From: a virus
Taxonomy: Duplodnaviria; Heunggongvirae; Uroviricota; Caudoviricetes
DNA length: 30,163 nucleotides
Virus record (IMG/VR): IMGVR_UViG_2526164632_000040
Reading direction: 5' to 3' (one strand)
Positions within the stretch are counted from its first letter, which is position 1, and the number at the start of each line of letters is the position of its first letter. Shown here in pieces: positions 15,218-28,983 of this stretch. A program made the translations under genes and the position numbers. The notes under the pieces are model-generated. The model ran no database searches. It was given only the letters and a program-made list of their open reading frames with translations, and was not told where the DNA came from.

Positions 15218-16229
15218 ATGGCTGATAATTTTCAGCTTAAAGCCATCATCACCGCCGTTGACAGGCTATCCGGCCCGCTTAAAGGTATGCAGCGTCAGCT
15301 TAAGGGGTTTCAGAAAGAAGTCTCCAGCCTTGCTCTGGGCGCTGCCGGGGCGGGTACTGCAATAATGGGGGCACTGGCACTCCCTGTAAAATCAGCCATC
15401 ACCCTTGAATCGAAGATGGCTGATGTCCGCAAAGTGGTGAACGGTCTGGATACGCCGGATGCGTTTAAGGCCATGACGGAGCAGGTACGCGCTTTGTCTA
15501 CTGAGCTTCCCATGTCTGCAGACGGGATCGCGGAAATTGTGGCGGCTGGCGGTCAGGCCGGGATTGCACGTGATGAACTGATGCAGTTTGCCACTGATGC
15601 GGTGAAGATGGGCGTGGCCTTTGATACCACGGCTGAAGAGTCCGGGCAGATGATGGCCCAGTGGCGTACTGCGTTTAATATGACGCAGGATGAAGTGGCC
15701 GGGCTGGCTGACAAAATCAACTACCTTGGTAATACCGGCCCGGCGAATGCGAAGAAAATCTCCGATATTGTTACGCGTATTGGTCCTTTAGGTGGTGTTG
15801 CAGGTGTGGCTTCCGGCGAAATCGCGGCAATGGGGGCAACCATTGCCGGGATGGGCGTGGAGTCAGAAATTGCCGCCACAGGGATCAAGAACTTCATGCT
15901 TTCCCTGACCGCGGGAAATTCCGCGACAAAATCGCAGAAACAGGCATTACGTTTTCTGCGGATCAATCCGAAGAAATTAGCTGCTGATATGCAGAAAGAT
16001 GCCCGGGGAACCATGCTGTCTGTACTGGATGCGATGGCTAAAGTGCCTAAAGAAAAACAGGCAGCTGTGCTGAATGCCCTGTTCGGGAAAGAGTCTCTGG
16101 GCGCGATAGCACCTCTGCTGACTAACCTTGATTTGTTGCGTACCAACTTCAGGCGGGTTGCGGATTCCCAGCAGTATGGCAGTTCGATGCAGAAGGAATA
16201 TGCTTCGAGGGCAGCGACGACGGAAAACC
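15218..16229 (+). pseudogene. tail tape measure protein, N-terminal fragment (interrupted by IS66-family element)
   Basis: Ala/Gly-rich helical protein with GAGGAG Shine-Dalgarno. The reading frame runs into the IS end at 16230. Confidence 0.7.
16222..16229. repeat. 8-bp target-site duplication GGAAAACC (left copy) of IS66 copy 1
   Basis: Identical 8-mer GGAAAACC lies directly outside both IS ends (16222-16229 and 18934-18941). Confidence 0.8.
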
Positions 16230-16259
16230 GTAAGCGGCTCGCCAGAACCGTATTGATAT

Positions 16260-17831
16260 TTACTGAGAGGTCAGATCAACTTTCCAGGGCAACAGATCGC
16301 GTACCCGGTTTGCCGGCCAATCCTGGATATGCTCAATGACGTAACGCAGCCATTTTTCTGGTTCCACATTGTTCAGACGGCATGTGCCGATCAGCGAGTA
16401 CAACACCGCCGCATGTTCGCCACCGCTGTCGGAACCCGCGAACAGCCAGTTTTTCCGGCCTACGGCCACTCCCCGTAAGGCGTTCTCTGCGATGTTGTTG
16501 TCGATTTCCACCCAGCCATTACTGCAGTACACGTTCAGGCCATCCCACTGTTTCAGCAGGTATGCGAACGCTTTTGCCGTATCCGAGTGACGCGACAGTG
16601 TTTTCATCTGAGTCTGTATCCAGTCATACAGTGACTGCATCAGTGGCGCAGCTCTGGCTTTTCTTGCCGCCAGACGCTGTTCTGCTGTACATCCCCGGAC
16701 TTCTGCCTCTATGGCATACAGTTCACCGATACGCTGCAGGGCTTCCGTGGTGATGTCGGTGGGCACTCTTGCATGCACATCGTGGATTTTTCTCCGGGCA
16801 TGAGCCATACACGCGGCTTCCGTTATTCTGCCGGATTCGTATAACACCCGGTAACCACCGTAAGCATCGGCCTGAAGCACACCGCTGTAACCGGCCAGAT
16901 GATTTTGTGGATGGATACCTTTCCGGTCCGGTGAGTACGCGAACCAGACCGCCGGGGGCATTTCCGAACCGGCGTTACGGTCATCACGGACGTAGACCCA
17001 CAGCCGGGCGGTCCGGGTTTTACCGCTGCCCGGCTCCTGGACCGGGACGGGGATATCATCAGCATGGACTTTACCGGGCATCAGCACATACTGGCGCAGG
17101 ACGTCATACAGCGGCTCCAGCAGTTCAGCAACGGCACCTGTCCAGCGCCCCAGCGTGGCGCGGCTCAGCTCCACGCCCTGGCGACGGTATATTTCTGACT
17201 GGCGGTATAACGGCAGATGGTCTGCATATTTCCCGGTAACAACATGGGCCAGAAGCCCCGCTCCGGCATAACTGCGTGCAATGGGTTTTGAAGGTACTGT
17301 TGCCTGCACGATATGGTCGCACCGACAACAGGCCAGTTTCGGACGTTGTGTTTCGATAACCTTAAAGGCGCTGCTGATAAGCTCCAGTTGCTCTGACACA
17401 TCACACCCCAGAGGACTGAGGTCACCACCACAGGCCGGGCAGCATTCCTCTTCCGGCCGGATGACCCGGGTTTCACGGGGAAGTGAGGCCGGTAACGGTT
17501 TACGGGCTGAAGACTGGCGCAGGGCGGATGGCAGTACCGGGTCATATTGCTCACCCAGCGTTTCCGCCATTTCTTCCTGAAGTGCGCTGATTCGCTCCTG
17601 TGCTTCCTGTATCTGCCGTTCGGTTTTAGCGCGAAGTTTTTCTGAGCTTTTACCGAACTGCATGCGCTGCAGTTTCGCAACCAGCGCCTTCAGCCGGTTG
17701 ATTTCGGAAGCATAAGCCGCCACCCGCTGTGAGAGCAGGCGGTTGTATTTCGCCATCTGGCGGATGGTGTCCTGTTGCGTCTGCAACAGTGCCCGCAGGC
17801 GGGCATTCTCATGAGCAAGTGAGGTGTCCAT
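16260..17831 (-). CDS. tnpC: IS66-family transposase TnpC
   Basis: 523 aa with N-terminal coiled coil, CxxC...CxxC zinc-finger motif (CCPACGG...CCRCDH) and a large catalytic region. Confidence 0.8.
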
Positions 17832-17850
17832 ATCCTCACTTTACAACGGG

Positions 17851-18198
17851 TTATATGCGGATGCCAGCGCGTTCCGTTCGTTTCGGGTGCTTCCAGTCGA
17901 TGCCTTCGAGAAGCATGGACAACTGAGCCGGAGTAAGGTGAACCTTTCCATCGCGGGTGACCGGCCAGACGAAGCGGCCCCGCTCCAGGCGTTTGGTGAA
18001 GAGGCACAGTCCGTCACTGTCAGCCCACAACACTTTTATCTGGTCACCCCGGCGTCCGCGGAAGATGAACAGGTGTCCGGAGAACGGGTCATCCTTCAGG
18101 ACGTTCTGAACTTTTGAGGCCAGGCCGTTAAAGCCATTTCGCATATCGGTGATACCGGCAACCAGCCAGATACGCGAACCGGCAGGGAGAGATATCAT
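17851..18198 (-). CDS. tnpB: IS66-family accessory protein TnpB (Orf2)
   Basis: 115 aa with the motif LVAGITDMRNGFNGLA characteristic of IS66 Orf2 as recalled. Confidence 0.8.
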   Translation of the reverse strand: MISLPAGSRIWLVAGITDMRNGFNGLASKVQNVLKDDPFSGHLFIFRGRRGDQIKVLWADSDGLCLFTKRLERGRFVWPVTRDGKVHLTPAQLSMLLEGIDWKHPKRTERAGIRI

Positions 18199-18848
18199 CA
18201 GTGGCTGCTCCCTTTCATTTCGCGGATAAGTGTCTGTAATAACGCCGGTGTCAGTTCACCTTTCAGCCTGAGAGTTCCGGCCGGCAGAACCAGCTCGCAG
18301 CACAGACTGTCTGGCAGTGTATTTATCTGTTCAGGTATCTGCACTGGTGCCGGGATTTTATTATCCGGCTCCGGAGTTAACGTCACGGGAAGTAGCGATG
18401 TTTCATGTTCGCCGGGCGGTTGCAGGCCACCGTTACGCCAGAGATGCCGCCAGTTAAAGAGCAGGTTATCGTTAATTCCATTCTCTCGAGCTATTTGTGC
18501 GACACAGGCACCGGGTAAAAGAGTTTGCTGAACCAGTCTCCATTTAAACTCCGGTGAAAATCGGTTCCGGCGGGGTTTCTCTGCTTTCACAGGCTGAGTC
18601 ACGGTCGGGGCTGAAGGGTATCGCCCCGGGAAAAGAGCCCGGGCCAGTTGCCCGCAGGAATATTCACCGGAAAGAGGCCAGTCAGTGAATACCTGGTGAA
18701 ATCGCCTCACCAGAGAAAAAATGGCGGTTTTGCTGACACCAGTCTGCGCAGAAATGCGCGGGTACGACAGTGACTCGTCAAATCTCAGCTGTAGCACACG
18801 CAGGATCAATTCTGGATTATCTGCCAGTACCGCTTTTCGTGCATTCAT
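18198..18848 (-). CDS. tnpA: IS66-family accessory protein TnpA (Orf1), HTH-containing
   Basis: 216 aa. First ORF of the IS; its stop overlaps the tnpB start. Confidence 0.7.
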   Translation of the reverse strand: MNARKAVLADNPELILRVLQLRFDESLSYPRISAQTGVSKTAIFSLVRRFHQVFTDWPLSGEYSCGQLARALFPGRYPSAPTVTQPVKAEKPRRNRFSPEFKWRLVQQTLLPGACVAQIARENGINDNLLFNWRHLWRNGGLQPPGEHETSLLPVTLTPEPDNKIPAPVQIPEQINTLPDSLCCELVLPAGTLRLKGELTPALLQTLIREMKGSSH

Positions 18849-18933
18849 CTTAAATGTCCTTTTACTGCGAAAATGGACATTAGTATCGGAAACAGGAAAG
18901 GGAGGCGAAAGACGGTTTAAATGATGCGCTTAC

Positions 18934-18941
18934 GGAAAACC
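18934..18941. repeat. 8-bp target-site duplication GGAAAACC (right copy) of IS66 copy 1
   Basis: Direct repeat of 16222-16229. Confidence 0.8.
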
Positions 18942-19831
18942 AGCTTTTACTTCTGCAAAATCAACTTGATGCCATTTCTTCCACTCTGGGGGAAACGTTT
19001 CTTCCTGAGGTTAATGATGGTCTTGAAGCGGTAAAACCGCTCCTTGAGGAAGTGAGAACGTTTGTCCGTGAAAACCCGGAGCTCGTTAAGACCATTGCTA
19101 AAATCGGTCTGGCTTTACTGACAGTGGGGGCCGCTGCAGGCTCTTTGTCCAGAATCATGAAAGTTCTCGGCGGTGTGATGAATATGACGCCTGCTAAGGG
19201 GCTGATTGCTCTTCTGGTTGGTGGCGCTTACCTCATTATTGATAATTGGGAAACCGTAGGTCCTGTCATAAAAAAAGTCTGGCACGTGGTGGATGAAACG
19301 GCGCAGGCGATGGGGGGATGGGAAACTGTTCTGAAAGCGATTGCCCTGTTTATGGCAACCAAATGGGTTGCTGACGTTACCAAATCCATTACCGCAGTGA
19401 CCAGAGAGATGCGTACGCTGGGGAAGGTATCGGCAGAAACGGGATTGATGGGGAAAGGCCGCGGCTTTATCGGGAAGGCCGGGGTATATGGTTTTCTGGG
19501 AACCCTGATGTATGAGCCGGTTAAAGATACTTTGGAAAGTGTTGTTCCTGAAGATACGGTTAACTGGCTGGATAATAAAGGGCTGTTTCTGGCTTCAGAC
19601 TGGACGCCTTTTTTTGATCGTAAAGAGTACGAGCAGTATCAGGCCAGCCTGAGTCAGTACAAACCCAATGTTCCGCTGTTGAATCCATCTTCTTCCATGA
19701 CACAGCACAGCGAGCTGAAAGTCACGTTCGAGAATGCTCCGCCAGGTATGAAGATAATTGATGTACCGGGCAAAGCCGATCCCCTGATGAAAATCACGCA
19801 CGATGTGGGGTATTCTCCATTCAGACGATAA
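18942..19831 (+). pseudogene. tail tape measure protein, C-terminal fragment
   Basis: Frame is open from 18944 to the stop at 19829-19831. It is in phase with the N-terminal fragment once the IS and one duplication copy are removed (junction codon C16229+AG18942-18943 = CAG). Hydrophobic/Gly-rich sequence typical of tape measure proteins. Confidence 0.7.
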
Positions 19832-19895
19832 TATAACTACTTTAATCAAGTAGGGTTATTGAGTGGTAAAGTTTGTGCTGAATGTAGGAGAGAAT

Positions 19896-20383
19896 ATGAA
19901 GAAAATGTTTATATTGTTGTTGGCTGTAGGACTGCCATTAAACTCCTTTGCGAAGCCAGTAACGGAAAAGCAGCTTGCTACATACTTTATAGATAACGTT
20001 AAAACTTCAGCGGATAAGAATATAGATCTAGATGTAGAGGGAATAAATAGACTGTCTGTAATATGCCCAGCAAAGTCGGCAAGTGGAACTCTTTTAATAA
20101 AAAAGCATCCTACGAGTTTAATAAAAGCATTGGTGCTTTTGATTTTGAAAATAACTCACAATCTGCACCATTGACTTTTATTGTACCAATTAGTGAGGAT
20201 GAAAATAACTTTGACTCGGAAATTATTGGTTTCTCTTTTGCATTTAAAATGCCAAGAGGGCAATTCTTTGTTGATGTTACGAAAACAGGGAAGGTAAAGG
20301 CTGGCGTAAATATTAGTGGTGAAAGCGGAATTACTTATTCATCATGTAGAATAGATACTCATAATGTTGATTATGATCGTTAA
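19896..20383 (+). pseudogene. AT-rich cargo gene for a secreted protein, apparently frameshifted at an A6 run
   Basis: ATG 19896 with AGGAGA Shine-Dalgarno. Signal peptide MKKMFILLLAVGLPLNSFA. The frame (codon phase 0) stops at 20174 while an overlapping ORF in phase 2 runs 20051-20383. A6 run at 20099-20104 lies in the overlap. Markedly AT-rich. Confidence 0.4.
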
Positions 20384-20397
20384 TTTTATTACCTAAT

Positions 20398-20428
20398 AAA
20401 AAACCGCGTTTACACGCGGTTTTTATTT
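20398..20428 (+). terminator. rho-independent terminator after the cargo gene
   Basis: Hairpin AAACCGCG-TTTACA-CGCGGTTT followed by a T-run. Confidence 0.55.
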
Positions 20429-20439
20429 GAGGTGACGCC

Positions 20440-21813
20440 ATGGATTTTTCTCATATTTCTTCGTACCTATCCTCTGATTCTCGAAGTGGCTGGCGTGAAA
20501 AGCTACTTGAAGCATCATTTCGAGGTGTGCCGTTTAAGGTTGAAGAAGAAAGTGCGGGAACCGGTCGCCGTGTGGAAACACATGAATACCCGAACCGCGA
20601 CAAGCCCTATACCGAAGATCTGGGAAAAGTCACTTTCCGCCCGTCCATCACAGCTTATGTGGTGGGAGATGACTGCTTTGACCAGCGCGATCGCCTGATT
20701 GAAGCGCTGAATAAACCCGGTCCCGGCACGCTTGTCCACCCGACATATGGTGAGCTGAAAGTCTGTGTTGACGGGGAAGTTCGGGTCAGCACATCGAAAA
20801 GTGAAGGGCGTATTGTCCGCTTTGACCTGAAGTTTGTCGAAGCAGGAGAACTCTCTTACCCCACATCAGGTGCGGCGACGGCGCAGACGCTGATGTCATC
20901 CTGTTCTGCACTGGATGACTGCATCAGTGACAGCTTCAGCGGTTTCAGTATCGATGGTGTAGCGGATTTCGTGCAGAACGACGTTATCGGTAATGCCAGC
21001 ATAATGCTGGGGTATGTTTCTGATGCGATGAAAGTGGTGGATTCTGCCGTATCGGATGCCGCCAGGCTGTTGCAGGGGGATATCTCGGTACTTCTGCCGC
21101 CGCCATCGTCAGGCAAAAATTTCGTTGAGCAGGTGCAGAAAATGTGGCGTACCGGGAAACGCCTTTATGGTAACGCCAGCGACCTGGTCACCATGATCAA
21201 AACGCTTTCCGGTGTCAGCCTCGGCAGCGATCTGCAACCGCGCGGCGTCTGGAAAACGGACAGTAAAACCACCGCCACGGCGACGCAGCAGCGTAACGTG
21301 GTTGCCAGCACCCTTCGTACGACCGCAATCAGCGAAGCGGCGTATGCCGTCACCCGATTGCCTGCGCCAACAACTTCCGCGGTGATGCAGAATTCCGCAG
21401 TGGGGCAGGCAACAACACCCGCGCAGAGCACTGGCTGGCCTTCCGTCACGCATCCGGCACTGAACAATGCACCGGCGGTGAAAAACACGGTTGACCTGCC
21501 GACGTGGGAAGAACTGACTGACATTCGCGACACACTGAATACGGCAATTGATAAGGAGTTGTCCCGTACAACCAGCGATGCGCTGTTTCTGGCGCTGCGC
21601 CGGGTGAAAGCAGATCTGAATGCGGATATCAACACGCGCCTTGAACAGTCTGCACGGATCATTCAGCGCACACCGGATGAGGTTTTACCCGCGCTGGTGC
21701 TGGCGGCGACCTGGTTTGATAACGCGGCGCGTGACGCGGACATTATCCGGCGTAATGCCATTACGCATCCCGGCTTTGTGCCGGTGATCCCTCTGAAGGT
21801 GCCAGTGCAATGA
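20440..21813 (+). CDS. Mu gpN-like DNA circularization protein
   Basis: N-terminal motif WREKLLEASFRGVPFKVEEE...GRRVETHEYPNRDKPYTEDLG matches the conserved N domain of Mu N as recalled. Confidence 0.65.
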   Translation: MDFSHISSYLSSDSRSGWREKLLEASFRGVPFKVEEESAGTGRRVETHEYPNRDKPYTEDLGKVTFRPSITAYVVGDDCFDQRDRLIEALNKPGPGTLVHPTYGELKVCVDGEVRVSTSKSEGRIVRFDLKFVEAGELSYPTSGAATAQTLMSSCSALDDCISDSFSGFSIDGVADFVQNDVIGNASIMLGYVSDAMKVVDSAVSDAARLLQGDISVLLPPPSSGKNFVEQVQKMWRTGKRLYGNASDLVTMIKTLSGVSLGSDLQPRGVWKTDSKTTATATQQRNVVASTLRTTAISEAAYAVTRLPAPTTSAVMQNSAVGQATTPAQSTGWPSVTHPALNNAPAVKNTVDLPTWEELTDIRDTLNTAIDKELSRTTSDALFLALRRVKADLNADINTRLEQSARIIQRTPDEVLPALVLAATWFDNAARDADIIRRNAITHPGFVPVIPLKVPVQ

Positions 21814-22889
21814 ACGACAATGTCACGCTACGGGTAAATGGCCGGGAGTGGAATGGCTGGACATCGGTGCGCATCGGTGCCGGTATTGAACGGCTGGCGC
21901 GGGATTTCAGTGTGGAGATCACCCGCCAGTGGCCGGGAGATGAGGGCATCACTACGCTTCAGCCGCGCATTAAAAACGGTTCAAAAGTGGAGGTACTGAT
22001 TGGTGATGAGCTGGTGATCACCGGCTGGGTGGAGGCGACGCCCGTTCGTTACGATGCCCGTTCGGTCAGTACCGGTATTGCCGGACGCAGTCTGACGGCT
22101 GACCTGATTGACTGTGCAGCCGAACCGACACAGTTTAACGGACGCTCGCTGGTGCAGATTGCGCAGGCGCTTGCTGCGCCTTTCGGCATTGAGGTGGTGA
22201 ACAGCGGTGCGCCGTCGGGTGTTATTCCTGATGTTCAGCCTGATCACGGTGAAACGGTGATTGAGGTAATCAACAAAATACTCGGTCAGCAGCAGGCACT
22301 GGCTTACGACGACCCGCACGGCAGGCTGGTGATTGGCGGTATTGGCTCAACGCGGGCACATACTGCGCTGGTACTCGGGGAAAATATCCTTTCCTGTGAT
22401 ACGGAGAAGAGTATCCGGGAGCGGTTTTCAGTTTACCAGGTGGCGGGGCAGCGTGCCGGAAACGACGATGATTTCGGTGAGGCCACCACCACCGCGCTGC
22501 GGGCCCGCACAGAGGACGCATTTATTGCCCGTTACCGTCCGATGTATATCAGGCAGCCAGGGCAGGCTACGGGGGCAGGCTGTATTGCCCGTGCGGACTT
22601 TGAAGCCCGGCAACGGGCGGCGCGGACGGATGAAACCACCTATGTGGTGCAGGGCTGGCGACAGGGTAACGGTACGCTGTGGCAGCCCAACCAGCGGGTG
22701 ATTGTCTTCGATCCGGTCTGTGGTTTCGACAATACCGAACTGCTTGTCTCGGAAGTCACGTTTACTCAGGACCAGAATGGCACCCTGACGGAAATCCGTG
22801 TCGGCCCACCTGATGCTTATCTGCCTGAACCCGAAGCCCCCGGCGCGCGGAAAAAGAAAAAAGCCAGAGTACAGGAGGACCCGTTCTGA
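21810..22889 (+). CDS. Mu gpP-like tail/baseplate protein
   Basis: 359 aa following N with ATGA overlap; size and order as in Mu-like tails. Confidence 0.6.
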   Translation: MNDNVTLRVNGREWNGWTSVRIGAGIERLARDFSVEITRQWPGDEGITTLQPRIKNGSKVEVLIGDELVITGWVEATPVRYDARSVSTGIAGRSLTADLIDCAAEPTQFNGRSLVQIAQALAAPFGIEVVNSGAPSGVIPDVQPDHGETVIEVINKILGQQQALAYDDPHGRLVIGGIGSTRAHTALVLGENILSCDTEKSIRERFSVYQVAGQRAGNDDDFGEATTTALRARTEDAFIARYRPMYIRQPGQATGAGCIARADFEARQRAARTDETTYVVQGWRQGNGTLWQPNQRVIVFDPVCGFDNTELLVSEVTFTQDQNGTLTEIRVGPPDAYLPEPEAPGARKKKKARVQEDPF

Positions 22890-23437
22890 TGAAGGCGATT
22901 GAAACCATACAGCGACAACTCCTCGGCCTGATTGGGCGGGCCGTGGTGAAAAGCATCAGTGCCGCCACGAAATGTCAGACCGTGGATGTGTCCCTGATTG
23001 CCGGTGAACCCAAAGCCGGGGTTGAACATCTTGAACCCTACGGTTTTACCGCAAGGGCAAACAGCGGTGCGGAAGCGGTGGTGTTGTTTCCGGATGGCGA
23101 CCGTTCTCATGCGGTGGTTGTTACGGTGTCGGACCGGCGCTACCGCCTGAAAGGGCTGCAGACGGGTGAGGTGGCTGTCTATGACGATCAGGGGCAGTCC
23201 GTGACGCTGACCCGGGAGGGGATCGTGGTGGACGGTGCAGGTAAAACGATCACGTTTCGCAATTCACCTAAAGCACGTTTTGAAATGGACCTGGAAGTGA
23301 CAGGACAGGTGAAAGACCTGTGCGACTCCAGCGGCACTACCATGTCAGCGATGCGGCTTGCCTATAACGGGCATCGTCACAGAGAGAACGGTCAGGGCAG
23401 TAACACCGACAAACCTGATAAAGCGATGGAGGCATGA
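22889..23437 (+). CDS. baseplate assembly protein (Mu gp45 / gpV-like spike)
   Basis: 182 aa in conserved position; start/stop overlap with neighbours. Confidence 0.55.
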   Translation: MKAIETIQRQLLGLIGRAVVKSISAATKCQTVDVSLIAGEPKAGVEHLEPYGFTARANSGAEAVVLFPDGDRSHAVVVTVSDRRYRLKGLQTGEVAVYDDQGQSVTLTREGIVVDGAGKTITFRNSPKARFEMDLEVTGQVKDLCDSSGTTMSAMRLAYNGHRHRENGQGSNTDKPDKAMEA

Positions 23438-23862
23438 TGGAACTGTGGCTGACGGTGAACGGTAAACGCACCTGCGCCAGCGCACCGCTGGATCCGCTGA
23501 CCCGCGCCGTGGTGATTTCCCTGTTTACCTGGCGGCGGGCGGAGCCTGATAACAACGCCGACGTCCCGATGGGATGGTGGGGGGATACCTGGCCTGCGGT
23601 ACAGAATGACCGTTACGGCTCCCGACTGTGGCTGCTTCAGCGCAGCAAACTGACCAATCAGCTGGTGCAGACGGTAAGGGGGTATATCCGCGAATGCCTG
23701 CAATGGATGATTGATGACGGCGTGGTGTCCCGTATTGATCTGGATATCCGCCGCACCGGGATTAATGAGCTGGGTAACAGTATCACCCTCTGGCGTCGTG
23801 ACGGACCGGTAATGATTTCTTTTGATGATCTGTGGAGTGCGATAACGCATGGCGGACAGTGA
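23434..23862 (+). CDS. Mu gp46-like baseplate protein (gp25/gpW-like)
   Basis: 142 aa in conserved position between the gp45-like and gp47-like genes. Confidence 0.55.
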   Translation: MMELWLTVNGKRTCASAPLDPLTRAVVISLFTWRRAEPDNNADVPMGWWGDTWPAVQNDRYGSRLWLLQRSKLTNQLVQTVRGYIRECLQWMIDDGVVSRIDLDIRRTGINELGNSITLWRRDGPVMISFDDLWSAITHGGQ

Positions 23863-24907
23863 ATTTCAGCGCCCGACGCTGGCAGAAAATATCAGTATGC
23901 TCCGTAACGATTTATTCGCCAGGCTGGACGTCAGCGACACGCTCCGGCGCATGGATGAAGACGTGCGGGCAAAGGTGTATGCGGCGGCGCTGCATACGGT
24001 TTACGGGTACATCGATTATCTGGCAATGAATATGCTGCCTGACCTGTGCGATGAGTCCTGGCTGGCGCGACATGCTGCGATGAAACGGTGTCCGCGCAAG
24101 GGGGCCACGGCTGCCAGCGGGTATATGCGTTGGGAAGATGTCAGCGATGGCCTGAAGGTGACCGCCGGGAGTGTTATTCAGCGCGATGACCTGGTTCAGT
24201 ACACGGCAACTGCCGATGCAACCAGCTCCGGTGGTGTCCTGCGCGTGCCGATCGCCTGCTCAAGTGCAGGAGCGGTCGGTAACGCTGACGACGGTACGTC
24301 ATTAATCCTGGTCACGCCGGTTAATGGTCTGCCGTCTTCCGGCGTGGCAGATACCCTGACAGGCGGATTTGATACTGAAGAGCTGGAAACGTGGCGCGCC
24401 CGCGTCATTGAGCGGTATTACTGGACGCCTCAGGGCGGGGCTGACGGGGACTATGTCGTCTGGGCTAAAGAAGTGCCCGGCATTACCCGCGCATGGACAT
24501 ACCGTCACTGGATGGGAACGGGAACTGTCGGTGTGATGATTGCCGGCAGTGACCTGATTAATCCCATTCCGGAAGAATCAACGGAAACGGCGGCAAGACA
24601 ACATATCGGGCCACTGGCCCCGGTGGCAGGCTCTGATTTGTATGTGTTCAGGCCGGTGGCGCATAAAGTGGATTTTCATATCCGCGTGACGCCGGACACA
24701 CCGGAAATACGGGCTGCCATCACCGCCGAGTTGCGTTCGTTCCTGCTGCGTGATGGTTATCCGCAGGGAGAACTGAAGGTGTCGCGTATCAGTGAGGCGA
24801 TTTCCGGTGCGAACGGGGAATACAGCCATCAGTTGCTTGCACCGGTGGACAATATCTCCATTGCGAAAAACGAACTGGCGGTTCTGGGGACGATTTCATG
24901 GACGTGA
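23849..24907 (+). CDS. baseplate J-like protein (Mu gp47-like)
   Basis: 352 aa; size and order match gpJ/gp47-family baseplate wedge proteins. Confidence 0.65.
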
Positions 24908-25482
24908 CAAACGATGATTACATCCGTCTGTTGTCGGCACTGCTGCCGCCCGGTCCGGCGTGGTCAGCCAGCGATCCGGCGATTGCAGGTGCGGCACCGT
25001 CATTAACCCGTGTTCATCAGCGTGCGGATGCCCTGATGCGGGAGCTGGATCCGCGCACCACCACCGAACTGATAAACCGCTGGGAGCGTCTGTGCGGCCT
25101 GCCGGATGAATGTATTCCCGCAGGGACACAGACCCTTCGCCAGCGTCAGCAACGGCTGGATGCGAAGGTTAACCTGGCGGGCGGCATCAACGAGGATTTT
25201 TATCTTGCACAGCTTGCTGCCCTGGGCAGACCAGATGCCACCATCACGCGATACGACAAAAGCACCTTCACCTGCTCATCGGCCTGTACTGACGCGGTGA
25301 ATGCGCCGGAATGGCGGTATTACTGGCAGGTCAACATGCCAGCTGCCACCAACACCACCTGGATGACATGTGGTGATCCCTGTGATTCCGCACTGCGTAT
25401 CTGGGGCGACACCGTTGTCGAGTGTGTGCTTAACAAACTCTGCCCTTCGCATACCTACGTAATTTTTAAATATCCGGAGTAA
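24898..25482 (+). CDS. Mu gp48-like tail protein (DUF2313 / YmfQ-like)
   Basis: 194 aa, Cys-rich C-terminus, immediately upstream of the tail fiber as in the e14 prophage. Confidence 0.6.
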
Positions 25483-25485
25483 TCC

Positions 25486-26585
25486 ATGCATCGTATAGAC
25501 ACGAAAACCGCGCAGAAGGATAAGTTCGGCGCGGGTAAGAACGGTTTTACCCGTGGTAACCCCCAGACCGGCACGCCTGCCACCGTTCTGGATGATGACT
25601 ACTTTGACATGTTGCAGGAAGAACTCTGCAGCGTGGTGGAGGCATCCGGTGCCAGCCTGGAGAAGGGGCGGCACGATCAGCTTCTTACCGCGCTTCGTGC
25701 GCTGCTGTTAAGCCGCAAGAATCCGTTTGGCGATATCAAATCGGATGGCACTGTGCAAACGGCTCTCGAAAACCTGGGAATGACAGACATTCTGAATGAT
25801 AAACAGGATAAAAATGATAATCTGACATCATTGTCGAGCTTAACAGGAATACCGGATGGGCTGGCATTTTTTACAGGTGCCGGAACAATGGATATGACAG
25901 CGCTGACTCAAAATGGCAGGGAAATTTTAAGTAAAAAAACGTATCGGAAACTCTAAAATATTTAACACTTGGGGATGGAACAGGAAGGCTTTTGGGGGTT
26001 CAGGCATTTGGATCATCTGGGACTTATATCAAATCACCTGGTGTAACGAAAATTATAGTGGAAGCCGTTGGCGGAGGTGGTGCCAGTGGTAATTTGTCGG
26101 CAACTGCATCTGGTAACTGTGGTGTAAGTGCTGCCGGTTCCAACGGGGCATATGCTAAAGCATTTTTTTATCAGTCTATACCTGAATCCGTGCAAGTAAC
26201 TATTGGAAGCGGTGGTGTAGCAGGAACAGGACCAGGAGGCTCTGGAGGTGACGGCGGGAATACAAGCTTTGGTGATTTGCTTGTATGTCCGGGAGGAAGG
26301 GGATCAACTCAAGTTCAGCAGGTACCTCCATTTTCAGGGGGAAGTGCAACAGAAGCACCAATTCCTACAGGGCAAGGGATTCTGTTCCATTCAGTTTCAC
26401 GATCAAATTTATGTGGGGCACTTGGACTTGGTGATGATCAGGCGATTGGCGTTGAAAGTATAACCACTACTATGCTTGGGATATACGGTATTGGCGGGAC
26501 AGGTAAATACAATAAGGCGTCATCAGGTCCAGCGACAGGAAATAATGGAAATCAGGGATATATTCTTGTGTGGGAGTATCAGTAA
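25486..26585 (+). pseudogene. tail fiber protein: conserved N-terminal domain plus glycine-rich C-terminal domain, split by an apparent -1 frameshift at an A7 run
   Basis: N-terminal part (25486-25956) has the motif MHRIDT...[28 protein letters not shown] and ends in stop TAA 25954-25956. The glycine-rich ORF is open in the -1 frame from 25935 to 26585. A7 run at 25933-25939. GC content drops from about 25790 onward. Confidence 0.55.
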
Positions 26586-26791
26586 TGAGCGATATTTATG
26601 CAGTCGTACAAAATGGTGTCGTTACAAATCTTGTTGTATGGGATGGTAAGTCAGAGTTTAAGTCAGAAAAAGCGGATATAGTTAAATGTGTTGGAGATGT
26701 TGGTATTGGCTGGTCATATGACGGTAAAAAATTCATCAAGCCTTCCTTAAAACCAGATGTAGTTACTCCTCAAGATGAGTTAGTCAGTTAA
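26585..26791 (+). CDS. hypothetical small protein downstream of tail fiber (68 aa)
   Basis: ATG 26585 with GGGAG 8 nt upstream, overlapping the tail-fiber stop. AT-rich. Followed by a terminator. No family recognised. Confidence 0.35.
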   Translation: MSDIYAVVQNGVVTNLVVWDGKSEFKSEKADIVKCVGDVGIGWSYDGKKFIKPSLKPDVVTPQDELVS

Positions 26792-26800
26792 TTGCTAGTA

Positions 26801-26836
26801 CGCTGGAGATTTTGATAATTTCCAGCGCATTTTTCC
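26801..26836 (+). terminator. rho-independent terminator ending the tail operon
   Basis: Hairpin CGCTGGAGATT-TTGAT-AATTTCCAGCG (one mismatch) followed by CATTTTT. Confidence 0.5.
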
Positions 26837-27202
26837 TTCTGCAGTAATGGATGAAATACCGCGAGTATAATGTTTTTATGCATATGAACCGTTTAAACCA
26901 GAGGAATCCTGACGAAATTGGTTATTGCGCCGAGAGTTGTCGGAGGGGGTGATATAGGTTATCTAATGGAGTAATCATTTTAACATTAATCAGTTTCCCC
27001 ATGACATCCTCTAAACCCTATATAAACGATTTCCTGCTACTGGCATTCAAACGAAATAATTTGAAAGCAATTTAAAGAGTTATTTGTCTAATGTTGGAAG
27101 CCGCAGCCACGTCGTATGCAAGAACGTGCTGCGGCTGGCTGGCGAACTTTCGATAGTGCGAGTATTGAATGATTTCCAGCCGTTACCGATTTTACGTGTT
27201 AA

Positions 27203-27362
27203 TTAGTGAACAAACCACTCGTCAGCAGATTCCCAGGTATCTTTCAGAGTCTCCTGAACAAAAGTTTTTGCAGAATCCTTATCTGCGGTGCGTGTAACAG
27301 AAAGGCCATCGTTGCTGGTGGCTTTTACGATCACCTCTACATCGTCATAACGTTTACTGATG
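27203..27362 (-). pseudogene. dinI: dinI-like gene, C-terminal fragment (interrupted by IS66 copy 2)
   Basis: Reverse-strand translation ...[50 protein letters not shown] matches the DinI C-terminus (ETWESADDWFV) as recalled. Confidence 0.6.
27355..27362. repeat. 8-bp target-site duplication TACTGATG (left copy) of IS66 copy 2
   Basis: Identical 8-mer TACTGATG lies outside both IS ends (27355-27362 and 30067-30074). Confidence 0.8.
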
Positions 27363-27392
27363 GTAAGCGGCTCGCCAGAACCGTATTGATAT

Positions 27393-28964
27393 TTACTGAG
27401 AGGTCAGATCAACTTTCCAGGGCAACAGATCGCGTACCCGGTTTGCCGGCCAATCCTGGATATGCTCAATGACGTAACGCAGCCATTTTTCTGGTTCCAC
27501 ATTGTTCAGACGGCATGTGCCGATCAGCGAGTACAACACCGCCGCATGTTCGCCACCGCTGTCGGAACCCGCGAACAGCCAGTTTTTCCGGCCTACGGCC
27601 ACTCCCCGTAAGGCGTTCTCTGCGATGTTGTTGTCGATTTCCACCCAGCCATTACTGCAGTACACGTTCAGGCCATCCCACTGTTTCAGCAGGTATGCGA
27701 ACGCTTTTGCCGTATCCGAGTGACGCGACAGTGTTTTCATCTGAGTCTGTATCCAGTCATACAGTGACTGCATCAGTGGCGCAGCTCTGGCTTTTCTTGC
27801 CGCCAGACGCTGTTCTGCTGTACATCCCCGGACTTCTGCCTCTATGGCATACAGTTCACCGATACGCTGCAGGGCTTCCGTGGTGATGTCGGTGGGCACT
27901 CTTGCATGCACATCGTGGATTTTTCTCCGGGCATGAGCCATACACGCGGCTTCCGTTATTCTGCCGGATTCGTATAACACCCGGTAACCACCGTAAGCAT
28001 CGGCCTGAAGCACACCGCTGTAACCGGCCAGATGATTTTGTGGATGGATACCTTTCCGGTCCGGTGAGTACGCGAACCAGACCGCCGGGGGCATTTCCGA
28101 ACCGGCGTTACGGTCATCACGGACGTAGACCCACAGCCGGGCGGTCCGGGTTTTACCGCTGCCCGGCTCCTGGACCGGGACGGGGATATCATCAGCATGG
28201 ACTTTACCGGGCATCAGCACATACTGGCGCAGGACGTCATACAGCGGCTCCAGCAGTTCAGCAACGGCACCTGTCCAGCGCCCCAGCGTGGCGCGGCTCA
28301 GCTCCACGCCCTGGCGACGGTATATTTCTGACTGGCGGTATAACGGCAGATGGTCTGCATATTTCCCGGTAACAACATGGGCCAGAAGCCCCGCTCCGGC
28401 ATAACTGCGTGCAATGGGTTTTGAAGGTACTGTTGCCTGCACGATATGGTCGCACCGACAACAGGCCAGTTTCGGACGTTGTGTTTCGATAACCTTAAAG
28501 GCGCTGCTGATAAGCTCCAGTTGCTCTGACACATCACACCCCAGAGGACTGAGGTCACCACCACAGGCCGGGCAGCATTCCTCTTCCGGCCGGATGACCC
28601 GGGTTTCACGGGGAAGTGAGGCCGGTAACGGTTTACGGGCTGAAGACTGGCGCAGGGCGGATGGCAGTACCGGGTCATATTGCTCACCCAGCGTTTCCGC
28701 CATTTCTTCCTGAAGTGCGCTGATTCGCTCCTGTGCTTCCTGTATCTGCCGTTCGGTTTTAGCGCGAAGTTTTTCTGAGCTTTTACCGAACTGCATGCGC
28801 TGCAGTTTCGCAACCAGCGCCTTCAGCCGGTTGATTTCGGAAGCATAAGCCGCCACCCGCTGTGAGAGCAGGCGGTTGTATTTCGCCATCTGGCGGATGG
28901 TGTCCTGTTGCGTCTGCAACAGTGCCCGCAGGCGGGCATTCTCATGAGCAAGTGAGGTGTCCAT
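27393..28964 (-). CDS. tnpC: IS66-family transposase TnpC
   Basis: Translation identical to copy 1 TnpC (523 aa). Confidence 0.8.
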
Positions 28965-28983
28965 ATCCTCACTTTACAACGGG

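Follow-up and report, generated by a model that had tools for sequence, protein, structure and literature searches.

IS679 is an insertion sequence of the IS66 family and is said to have been first described by Han et al. in J Bacteriol in 2001, from plasmid pB171 of the EPEC strain B171. Elements of the IS66 family typically carry the terminal motif GTAAGCG. A related element of the same family, ISCro1, has multiplied in Citrobacter rodentium ICC168, where 24 copies are present (PMC3072379).

Gene conversion and mosaicism between copies of an insertion sequence have been described for Wolbachia (Cordaux 2009 Mol Biol Evol, as cited in PMC3205602). Wagner et al. (2007) stated that in their own earlier work the usual signatures of gene conversion were absent within IS families, the copies of which were highly homogeneous (PMC2018620). 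IS679, ISCro1 and the exchange of sequence among IS copies are thus all already known. Our literature searches on IS679 returned survey papers and no study of mosaics between IS679 and ISCro1.

The present work concerns a prophage stretch of 30,163 nucleotides (IMG/VR virus record IMGVR_UViG_2526164632_000040), referred to below as the window, which contains two copies of IS679. From the letters of the window alone it had been proposed that the two copies differ only by three clustered silent changes in tnpB, and that these reflect either a short gene-conversion patch from another IS66 copy or purifying selection on TnpB, rather than random decay. Here the two copies are compared with each other, with the IS679 and ISCro1 elements of sequenced genomes and with the unoccupied sites of related strains. 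The three changes form a contiguous ISCro1-type patch, bounded on both sides and unique to one of the two copies, which probably arose by a short ectopic gene conversion.

Results

The two elements lie in direct orientation at 16230-18933 (copy 1) and 27363-30066 (copy 2), both on the minus strand. Each is 2704 bp long, the offset between them is 11133 bp, and they align without gaps. Identity between the repeats ends abruptly at 16230 and 18933, so the element boundaries given in the original prediction were placed correctly, and no further long repeat turned up when the window was searched for repeats. Both repeats were assigned to IS679 of the IS66 family, their matches in a megablast search of 5,426 complete E. 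coli genomes being annotated as 'IS66-like element IS679 family transposase'. Copy 2 agrees at every one of its 2704 positions with IS679 of strain FDAARGOS_1059, both on the chromosome and on an 88-kb plasmid, and with IS679 of the O111:H2 strain 12A. Copy 1 is identical at 2701 of the 2704 positions to the canonical IS679 of RefSeq E. coli genomes, and in every record listed in both searches it scored about 17 bits below copy 2, which corresponds to three mismatches. Because copy 2 is canonical and copy 1 lies about three mismatches lower, copy 2 was taken as the parental state and copy 1 as the variant.

The genes tnpA, tnpB and tnpC are consecutive, as is usual for the IS66 type, and all three are intact in both copies. 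In copy 1, where they are likewise on the minus strand, tnpC (16260-17831) encodes a DDE transposase of 523 amino acids (Pfam DDE_Tnp_IS66, E = 1.3e-103), which also matches the Pfam families zf-IS66, LZ_Tnp_IS66 and DDE_Tnp_IS66_C. The tnpB gene (17851-18198), in which the patch lies, encodes 115 amino acids (Pfam TnpB_IS66, E = 2.8e-40), and tnpA (18198-18848) encodes 216 amino acids (Pfam HTH_Tnp_1, E = 7.5e-17). Both ends of the element start with GTAAGCG and form imperfect inverted repeats, with further matches over approximately 25 bp. A plus-strand open reading frame at 17824-18117, which overlaps the patch, was treated as spurious.

Copy 1 is inserted in the tail tape-measure gene of the prophage and is flanked by an 8-bp target-site duplication, GGAAAACC, at 16222-16229 on the left and 18934-18941 on the right. 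Copy 2 is inserted in a DinI-like gene, with 8-bp duplications of TACTGATG at 27355-27362 and 30067-30074. Both insertion sites are empty in the two closest complete E. coli genomes (L001 and L002), where each 8-bp target occurs once; the target of copy 1 is found in these unoccupied relatives at locus position 20001-20008, and the site of copy 2 falls inside the DinI-like gene at 28272-28520 of L001. As each copy has its own duplications and the sites are empty in the relatives, the insertions are recent, independent of each other and specific to the strain of the window. The matching duplications that flank each copy further indicate that no crossover between the copies has rearranged the locus.

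The prophage is SfIV-like and has a contractile tail; its tape-measure gene and the one of Shigella phage SfIV share 99.2 % identity, and the same prophage adjoins dusA in the two closest complete genomes. Copy 1 splits the tape-measure gene into the parts 15218-16229 and 18942-19831, and copy 2 splits the DinI-like gene into 27205-27362 and 30075-30163. Both genes are uninterrupted in the closest genomes. The prophage of the window's strain is probably defective. The direct IS679 copies (16230-30066) bracket 8.4 kb of tail and baseplate genes in a layout resembling a composite transposon, and with each copy keeping its matching duplications, no deletion between the two has occurred.

Full pairwise alignment of 16230-18933 against 27363-30066 gave exactly three mismatches, 18030/29163 (A in copy 1, G in copy 2), 18073/29206 (G and A) and 18076/29209 (T and C), in agreement with the positions originally predicted. 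Further differences elsewhere in the elements, which the prediction had named as the observation that would speak against it, were looked for over the 2704 bp and none is present. In copy 2 the corresponding stretch, 29163-29209, has the canonical IS679 bases G, A and C. On the minus strand, 18030 is the first base of tnpB codon 57 (Leu, TTG in copy 1 and CTG in copy 2), 18073 is the third base of codon 42 (His, CAC and CAT) and 18076 is the third base of codon 41 (Gly, GGA and GGG). All three changes are synonymous and the TnpB protein is the same in the two copies, so that the predicted codons and the unchanged protein were borne out as well.

The sequence of the patch is widespread in another context. 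A segment of 127 bp around the patch of copy 1 was matched at an identity of at least 99 % in 2014 E. coli records, and was 100 % identical among the matches listed. The two matches that were fetched (L003 and L004) lie in tnpB of elements annotated as ISCro1, of the IS66 family. IS679 and ISCro1 are 94.9 % identical over 2286 bp in a gap-free alignment covering tnpC, tnpB and the 3' part of tnpA, and in this aligned part canonical IS679 and ISCro1 are distinguished by 120 sites. Copy 1 is of the ISCro1 type at 18030, 18073 and 18076, which follow directly upon one another in the series of distinguishing sites, and of the IS679 type at the other 117, among them the adjacent sites 17962 and 18118. 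Since these two neighbours are already of the IS679 type, the ISCro1-type tract on the minus strand is at least 47 bp (18030-18076, with A at 18030, G at 18073 and T at 18076) and at most 155 bp (17963-18117). The three sites are flanked, inside this longest possible tract, by blocks in which IS679 and ISCro1 are identical, 67 bp at 17963-18029 and 41 bp at 18077-18117.

Several calculations bear on whether such a pattern could arise by chance. For three sites placed at random in 2704 bp, the probability of lying in a stretch of 47 bp is about 9e-4 (9.4e-4 when simulated and 9.0e-4 analytically). Three random substitutions would all give the ISCro1 base with P = 3.2e-6 if substitutions are uniform and 1.6e-5 if all are transitions, and three randomly chosen distinguishing sites would be consecutive with P = 4.2e-4. 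The view that the differences are not random decay was therefore correct, on the clustering as well as on the match to ISCro1.

The silence of the changes has a different explanation. Three random substitutions in tnpB would all be synonymous with P of about 0.015. The tnpB genes of IS679 and ISCro1 themselves differ at 16 positions, 15 of them synonymous and one non-synonymous (D101N), and the patch is silent because donor and recipient families differ almost solely at synonymous tnpB sites. Silence is thus to be expected of any short piece of sequence that ISCro1 donates to this gene. Of the two alternatives offered in the original prediction, the gene-conversion patch from another IS66 copy is thus strongly supported by the consecutive ISCro1 bases, the IS679 bases on both sides, the canonical state of copy 2 and the apparent presence of ISCro1-type tnpB copies in the closest relatives, while purifying selection on TnpB in these copies is not needed, given the 15 to 1 ratio between the parents. 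The three synonymous changes out of three are fully accounted for by the donor and carry no information on selection acting on tnpB after the divergence of the two copies; the silence reflects long-term selection in both parent lineages.

The chimeric combination itself was sought in several collections. The 395-bp chimeric segment 17863-18257 was not matched at 100 % by any of the 5,426 complete E. coli genomes, the best match having three mismatches (canonical IS679), or by any of 72,556 plasmids, where the best match also had three mismatches. The exact 178-nt chimera was absent from a set with one genome per prokaryotic species, from the IMG/VR viral contigs and from the JGI metagenomes. 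Searches for the window itself gave no match to an exact junction pattern in viral contigs and, by megablast against a phage collection, partial hits only. The chimeric allele appears to be private to the strain of the window.

Candidate donors were looked for with a 58-mer, positions 18046-18103 of copy 1, in which the two variant sites break up the identity to IS679, with no remaining block longer than 27 bases. As megablast needs an exact word of 28 bases, an IS679-type target cannot seed a match to this 58-mer. The 58-mer was appended to the 8.4-kb query between the IS copies, and the matching places were counted before and after. The count rose from 4 to 9 in the FDAARGOS_1059 chromosome, from 3 to 5 in O111:H2 strain 12A and from 6 to 19 in ETEC H10407, and was unchanged in the two controls, CFSAN061769 (3 and 3) and strain 998 (4 and 4). 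The extra places in FDAARGOS_1059 are not patched IS679 copies, because the best match there to the 395-bp chimera has three mismatches. The additional places, five in FDAARGOS_1059 and two in strain 12A as known from the counts alone, are most simply ISCro1-type elements, and judged from the counts in these two related strains the lineage appears to carry several possible donors beside its IS679 copies. Citrobacter rodentium also holds both elements, with 24 copies of ISCro1 and one of IS679 (PMC3072379). A 97-kb replicon of FDAARGOS_1059, 'plasmid unnamed1' (L014, NZ_CP066033.1, 1-50000), has the appearance of a phage-type plasmid: among its genes are those for portal and head, a lytic replication protein, a Phd/Doc toxin-antitoxin pair and the Thoeris anti-defence Tad2, and it has a tRNA cluster; no IS66-family element was present in its first 50 kb.

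Nine variants of IS679, 98.3-99.7 % identical to the element of the window, were compared with canonical IS679 and ISCro1. In the variant of plasmid pJSWP021_1 (L010, NZ_CP147076.1), 22 of the 23 differences are ISCro1 bases and form an uninterrupted run of approximately 650 bp (17463-18118), which takes in 18030, 18073 and 18076. A second variant (L012, NZ_AP041805.1) has ISCro1 bases at 25 of its 37 differences, distributed in patches between 17010 and 18264, and a third (L007) has a cluster at 17238-17335. Two further variants (L011, NZ_CP025918.1, and L013, NZ_CP122823.1) have differences packed closely together in tnpA and towards the 3' end of tnpC; these clusters match ISCro1 only in part, which suggests further donors of the IS66 family. 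On these alignments mosaicism is common among the elements, and copy 1 is the smallest and cleanest case among those compared.

Over the 24.7 kb that do not belong to the IS elements, three substitutions and three 1-bp deletions separate the window from its closest relative. The deletions are in A/T runs at 1941, 20098 and 25932, where the window has runs of 6 or 7 bases and the longer run is common to FDAARGOS_1059 and strain 12A. Two of the three cause frameshifts in hypothetical genes, starting at 1916 and 19896 in the window, which are intact in the relatives. These homopolymer deletions look like residual sequencing error, and decay of a dead prophage is also possible. Two of the three substitutions, at 66 and 69, lie in a prophage gene of the DUF968 type; the window reads G and C there and both closest genomes read A and A, and the 121 bp of the window around these positions are 100 % identical to the DUF968 genes of many other E. 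coli prophages. Either a related copy donated this two-site patch in a short conversion, or the patch is an artefact of polishing in repeated prophage DNA.

Discussion

The explanation that we consider probable, with good confidence, is that copy 1 is an IS679 element which received a short, non-reciprocal transfer, i.e. an ectopic gene conversion, from the tnpB of an ISCro1-type element. The differences are clustered, all three within 47 of 2704 bp, and they are consecutive donor bases with the bases of the recipient restored on both sides. RecA-dependent homologous recombination would have paired an IS679 with an ISCro1 copy of the same cell. The short heteroduplex arising between fully identical blocks would then have been resolved or mismatch-repaired without crossover, so that an IS679 which is canonical in all else would have kept three bases of ISCro1. 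The RecA and heteroduplex mechanism is our inference, and so is a co-resident donor, which we deduce from the counts in the two related strains. Recombination in E. coli requires approximately 20-40 bp of perfect homology, and the blocks of 67 and 41 bp would be long enough for pairing, as both exceed this threshold. Mismatch repair normally suppresses exchange at a divergence of 5 %, and the event should therefore be rare. No Chi site, looked for as a recombination hotspot, was found within the element.

The exchange could have taken place in copy 1 at its present locus or in a master copy before transposition. In the latter case another IS679 copy of the lineage, already patched, would have transposed into the tape-measure gene, and copy 2 would derive from a canonical master; the mosaic origin is the same, and this is a variant of the conversion explanation and not a contradiction to it. 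Both insertions are recent and independent, with their own 8-bp duplications and with empty sites in the relatives, and transposition is fast relative to point mutation (PMC2018620); we count both points in its favour. Against it, no patched IS679 was found in the two related complete genomes or in the other collections searched. Within the explanation by conversion, we give the master copy the minor share and regard it as somewhat doubtful.

The main competitor of gene conversion is an artefact of assembly or polishing, in which ISCro1 reads were misassigned, during consensus calling or short-read polishing, to a copy 1 that is really canonical. Short patches matching related copies are expected from gene conversion and from misassigned reads alike, and the tract of at most 155 bp is approximately one short-read length. 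The three homopolymer deletions, two of them frameshifting, are typical of residual sequencing error, and the second, two-site patch at 66 and 69 in a repeated prophage gene also matches the version that is common in other genomes. On the other hand, ISCro1 reads should map better to the ISCro1 copies, which they match perfectly, than to IS679. Sequence context is the same for both copies of IS679, so that a systematic base-calling error would affect both, and a random error would give the ISCro1 bases with P of at most 1.6e-5. Base calling disturbed by methylation was rejected as a source, as none of the three sites falls in a Dam or Dcm motif. Real mosaics of IS679 and ISCro1 occur, moreover, in independent finished genomes. 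We consider an artefact unlikely, while giving it more weight than the remaining alternatives. Among these, three independent point mutations or one multi-base event, retained because purifying selection lets silent changes through, would agree with the synonymous nature of all three changes. The closest relative differs by three substitutions over 24.7 kb of non-IS sequence, so that a few mutations are to be expected in the lineage, which also speaks for this reading. Mutation would nevertheless have to account for the clustering (P of about 9e-4), for the coincidence with ISCro1 bases (P from 3e-6 to 1.6e-5) and for the three sites being consecutive among the distinguishing ones (P of 4e-4), with the other 2701 bp, including the non-coding ends, unchanged. 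For practical purposes independent or single multi-base mutation is ruled out.

It is also conceivable that copy 1 represents an old IS679 lineage which retained ancestral, ISCro1-like bases, the canonical bases being derived; ISCro1 and the two long mosaics, L010 and L012, share some or all of the three bases. An old lineage should differ at other places too, and copy 1 is canonical at the other 2701 positions. Seven of the nine sampled IS679 variants are canonical at the three sites, and the two that are not, L010 (all three sites) and L012 (18030 only), carry the ISCro1 bases within long ISCro1-type tracts. Retained ancestry is for these reasons very improbable. A more speculative idea, to which we attach little probability, is that short exchange between IS679 and ISCro1 is routine, with tnpB as the preferred site, and that it occurs by template switching between elements of one cell during replicative transposition of the IS66 family and not by RecA-dependent conversion. 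Copy 1, L010 and L012 all have ISCro1 bases over part or all of 18030-18118. If this idea were true, mosaic alleles would be a by-product of transposition and a marker for the poorly understood IS66 mechanism. Ectopic gene conversion from ISCro1 remains the reading that we prefer.

Copy 1 provides a clean, minimal example of exchange between distinct but related insertion sequences, with a tract bounded to 47-155 bp and with copy 2 as the parental and copy 1 as the converted form 11 kb apart in one prophage. When copies of an insertion sequence are found to differ, related IS families should be checked before the differences are read as mutational age or as selection. Typing by SNPs in repeats and dating from IS copies can go wrong where such patches are present, and as these patches look exactly like polishing artefacts they provide a useful test case for quality control of assemblies. 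The value of the observation is modest: it is ordinary recombination between related jumping genes, though cleanly resolved. It is a new allele, produced by a known process on a known element, with no new element, gene or mechanism.

Compared with described IS679, both copies have the expected length of 2704 bp, the gene order tnpA-tnpB-tnpC, the 8-bp duplications and the GTAAGCG ends, and copy 1 departs from it only by the three ISCro1-type bases in tnpB. ISCro1 is identical to copy 1 across the whole maximal tract of 155 bp, and its TnpB differs from that of IS679 by the single residue D101N. It differs from IS679 most strongly at the tnpA end, where nucleotide similarity is undetectable over approximately 400 bp and the identity between the TnpA proteins is 59 %. 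This dissimilar part, located at 4027-4415 of L003 and at 18516-18910 of the window, hints at a module that was exchanged or has diverged fast. The patch resembles the ectopic gene conversion known among IS copies in being a short tract that looks non-reciprocal, has the bases of a related copy and is followed on both sides by the sequence of the recipient. In contrast to the IS families considered by Wagner et al. (2007), the tract is visible here because the donor is a different element, 5 % diverged from the recipient. The mosaic of L010 has a run of approximately 650 bp, compared to the very short tract of 47-155 bp in copy 1.
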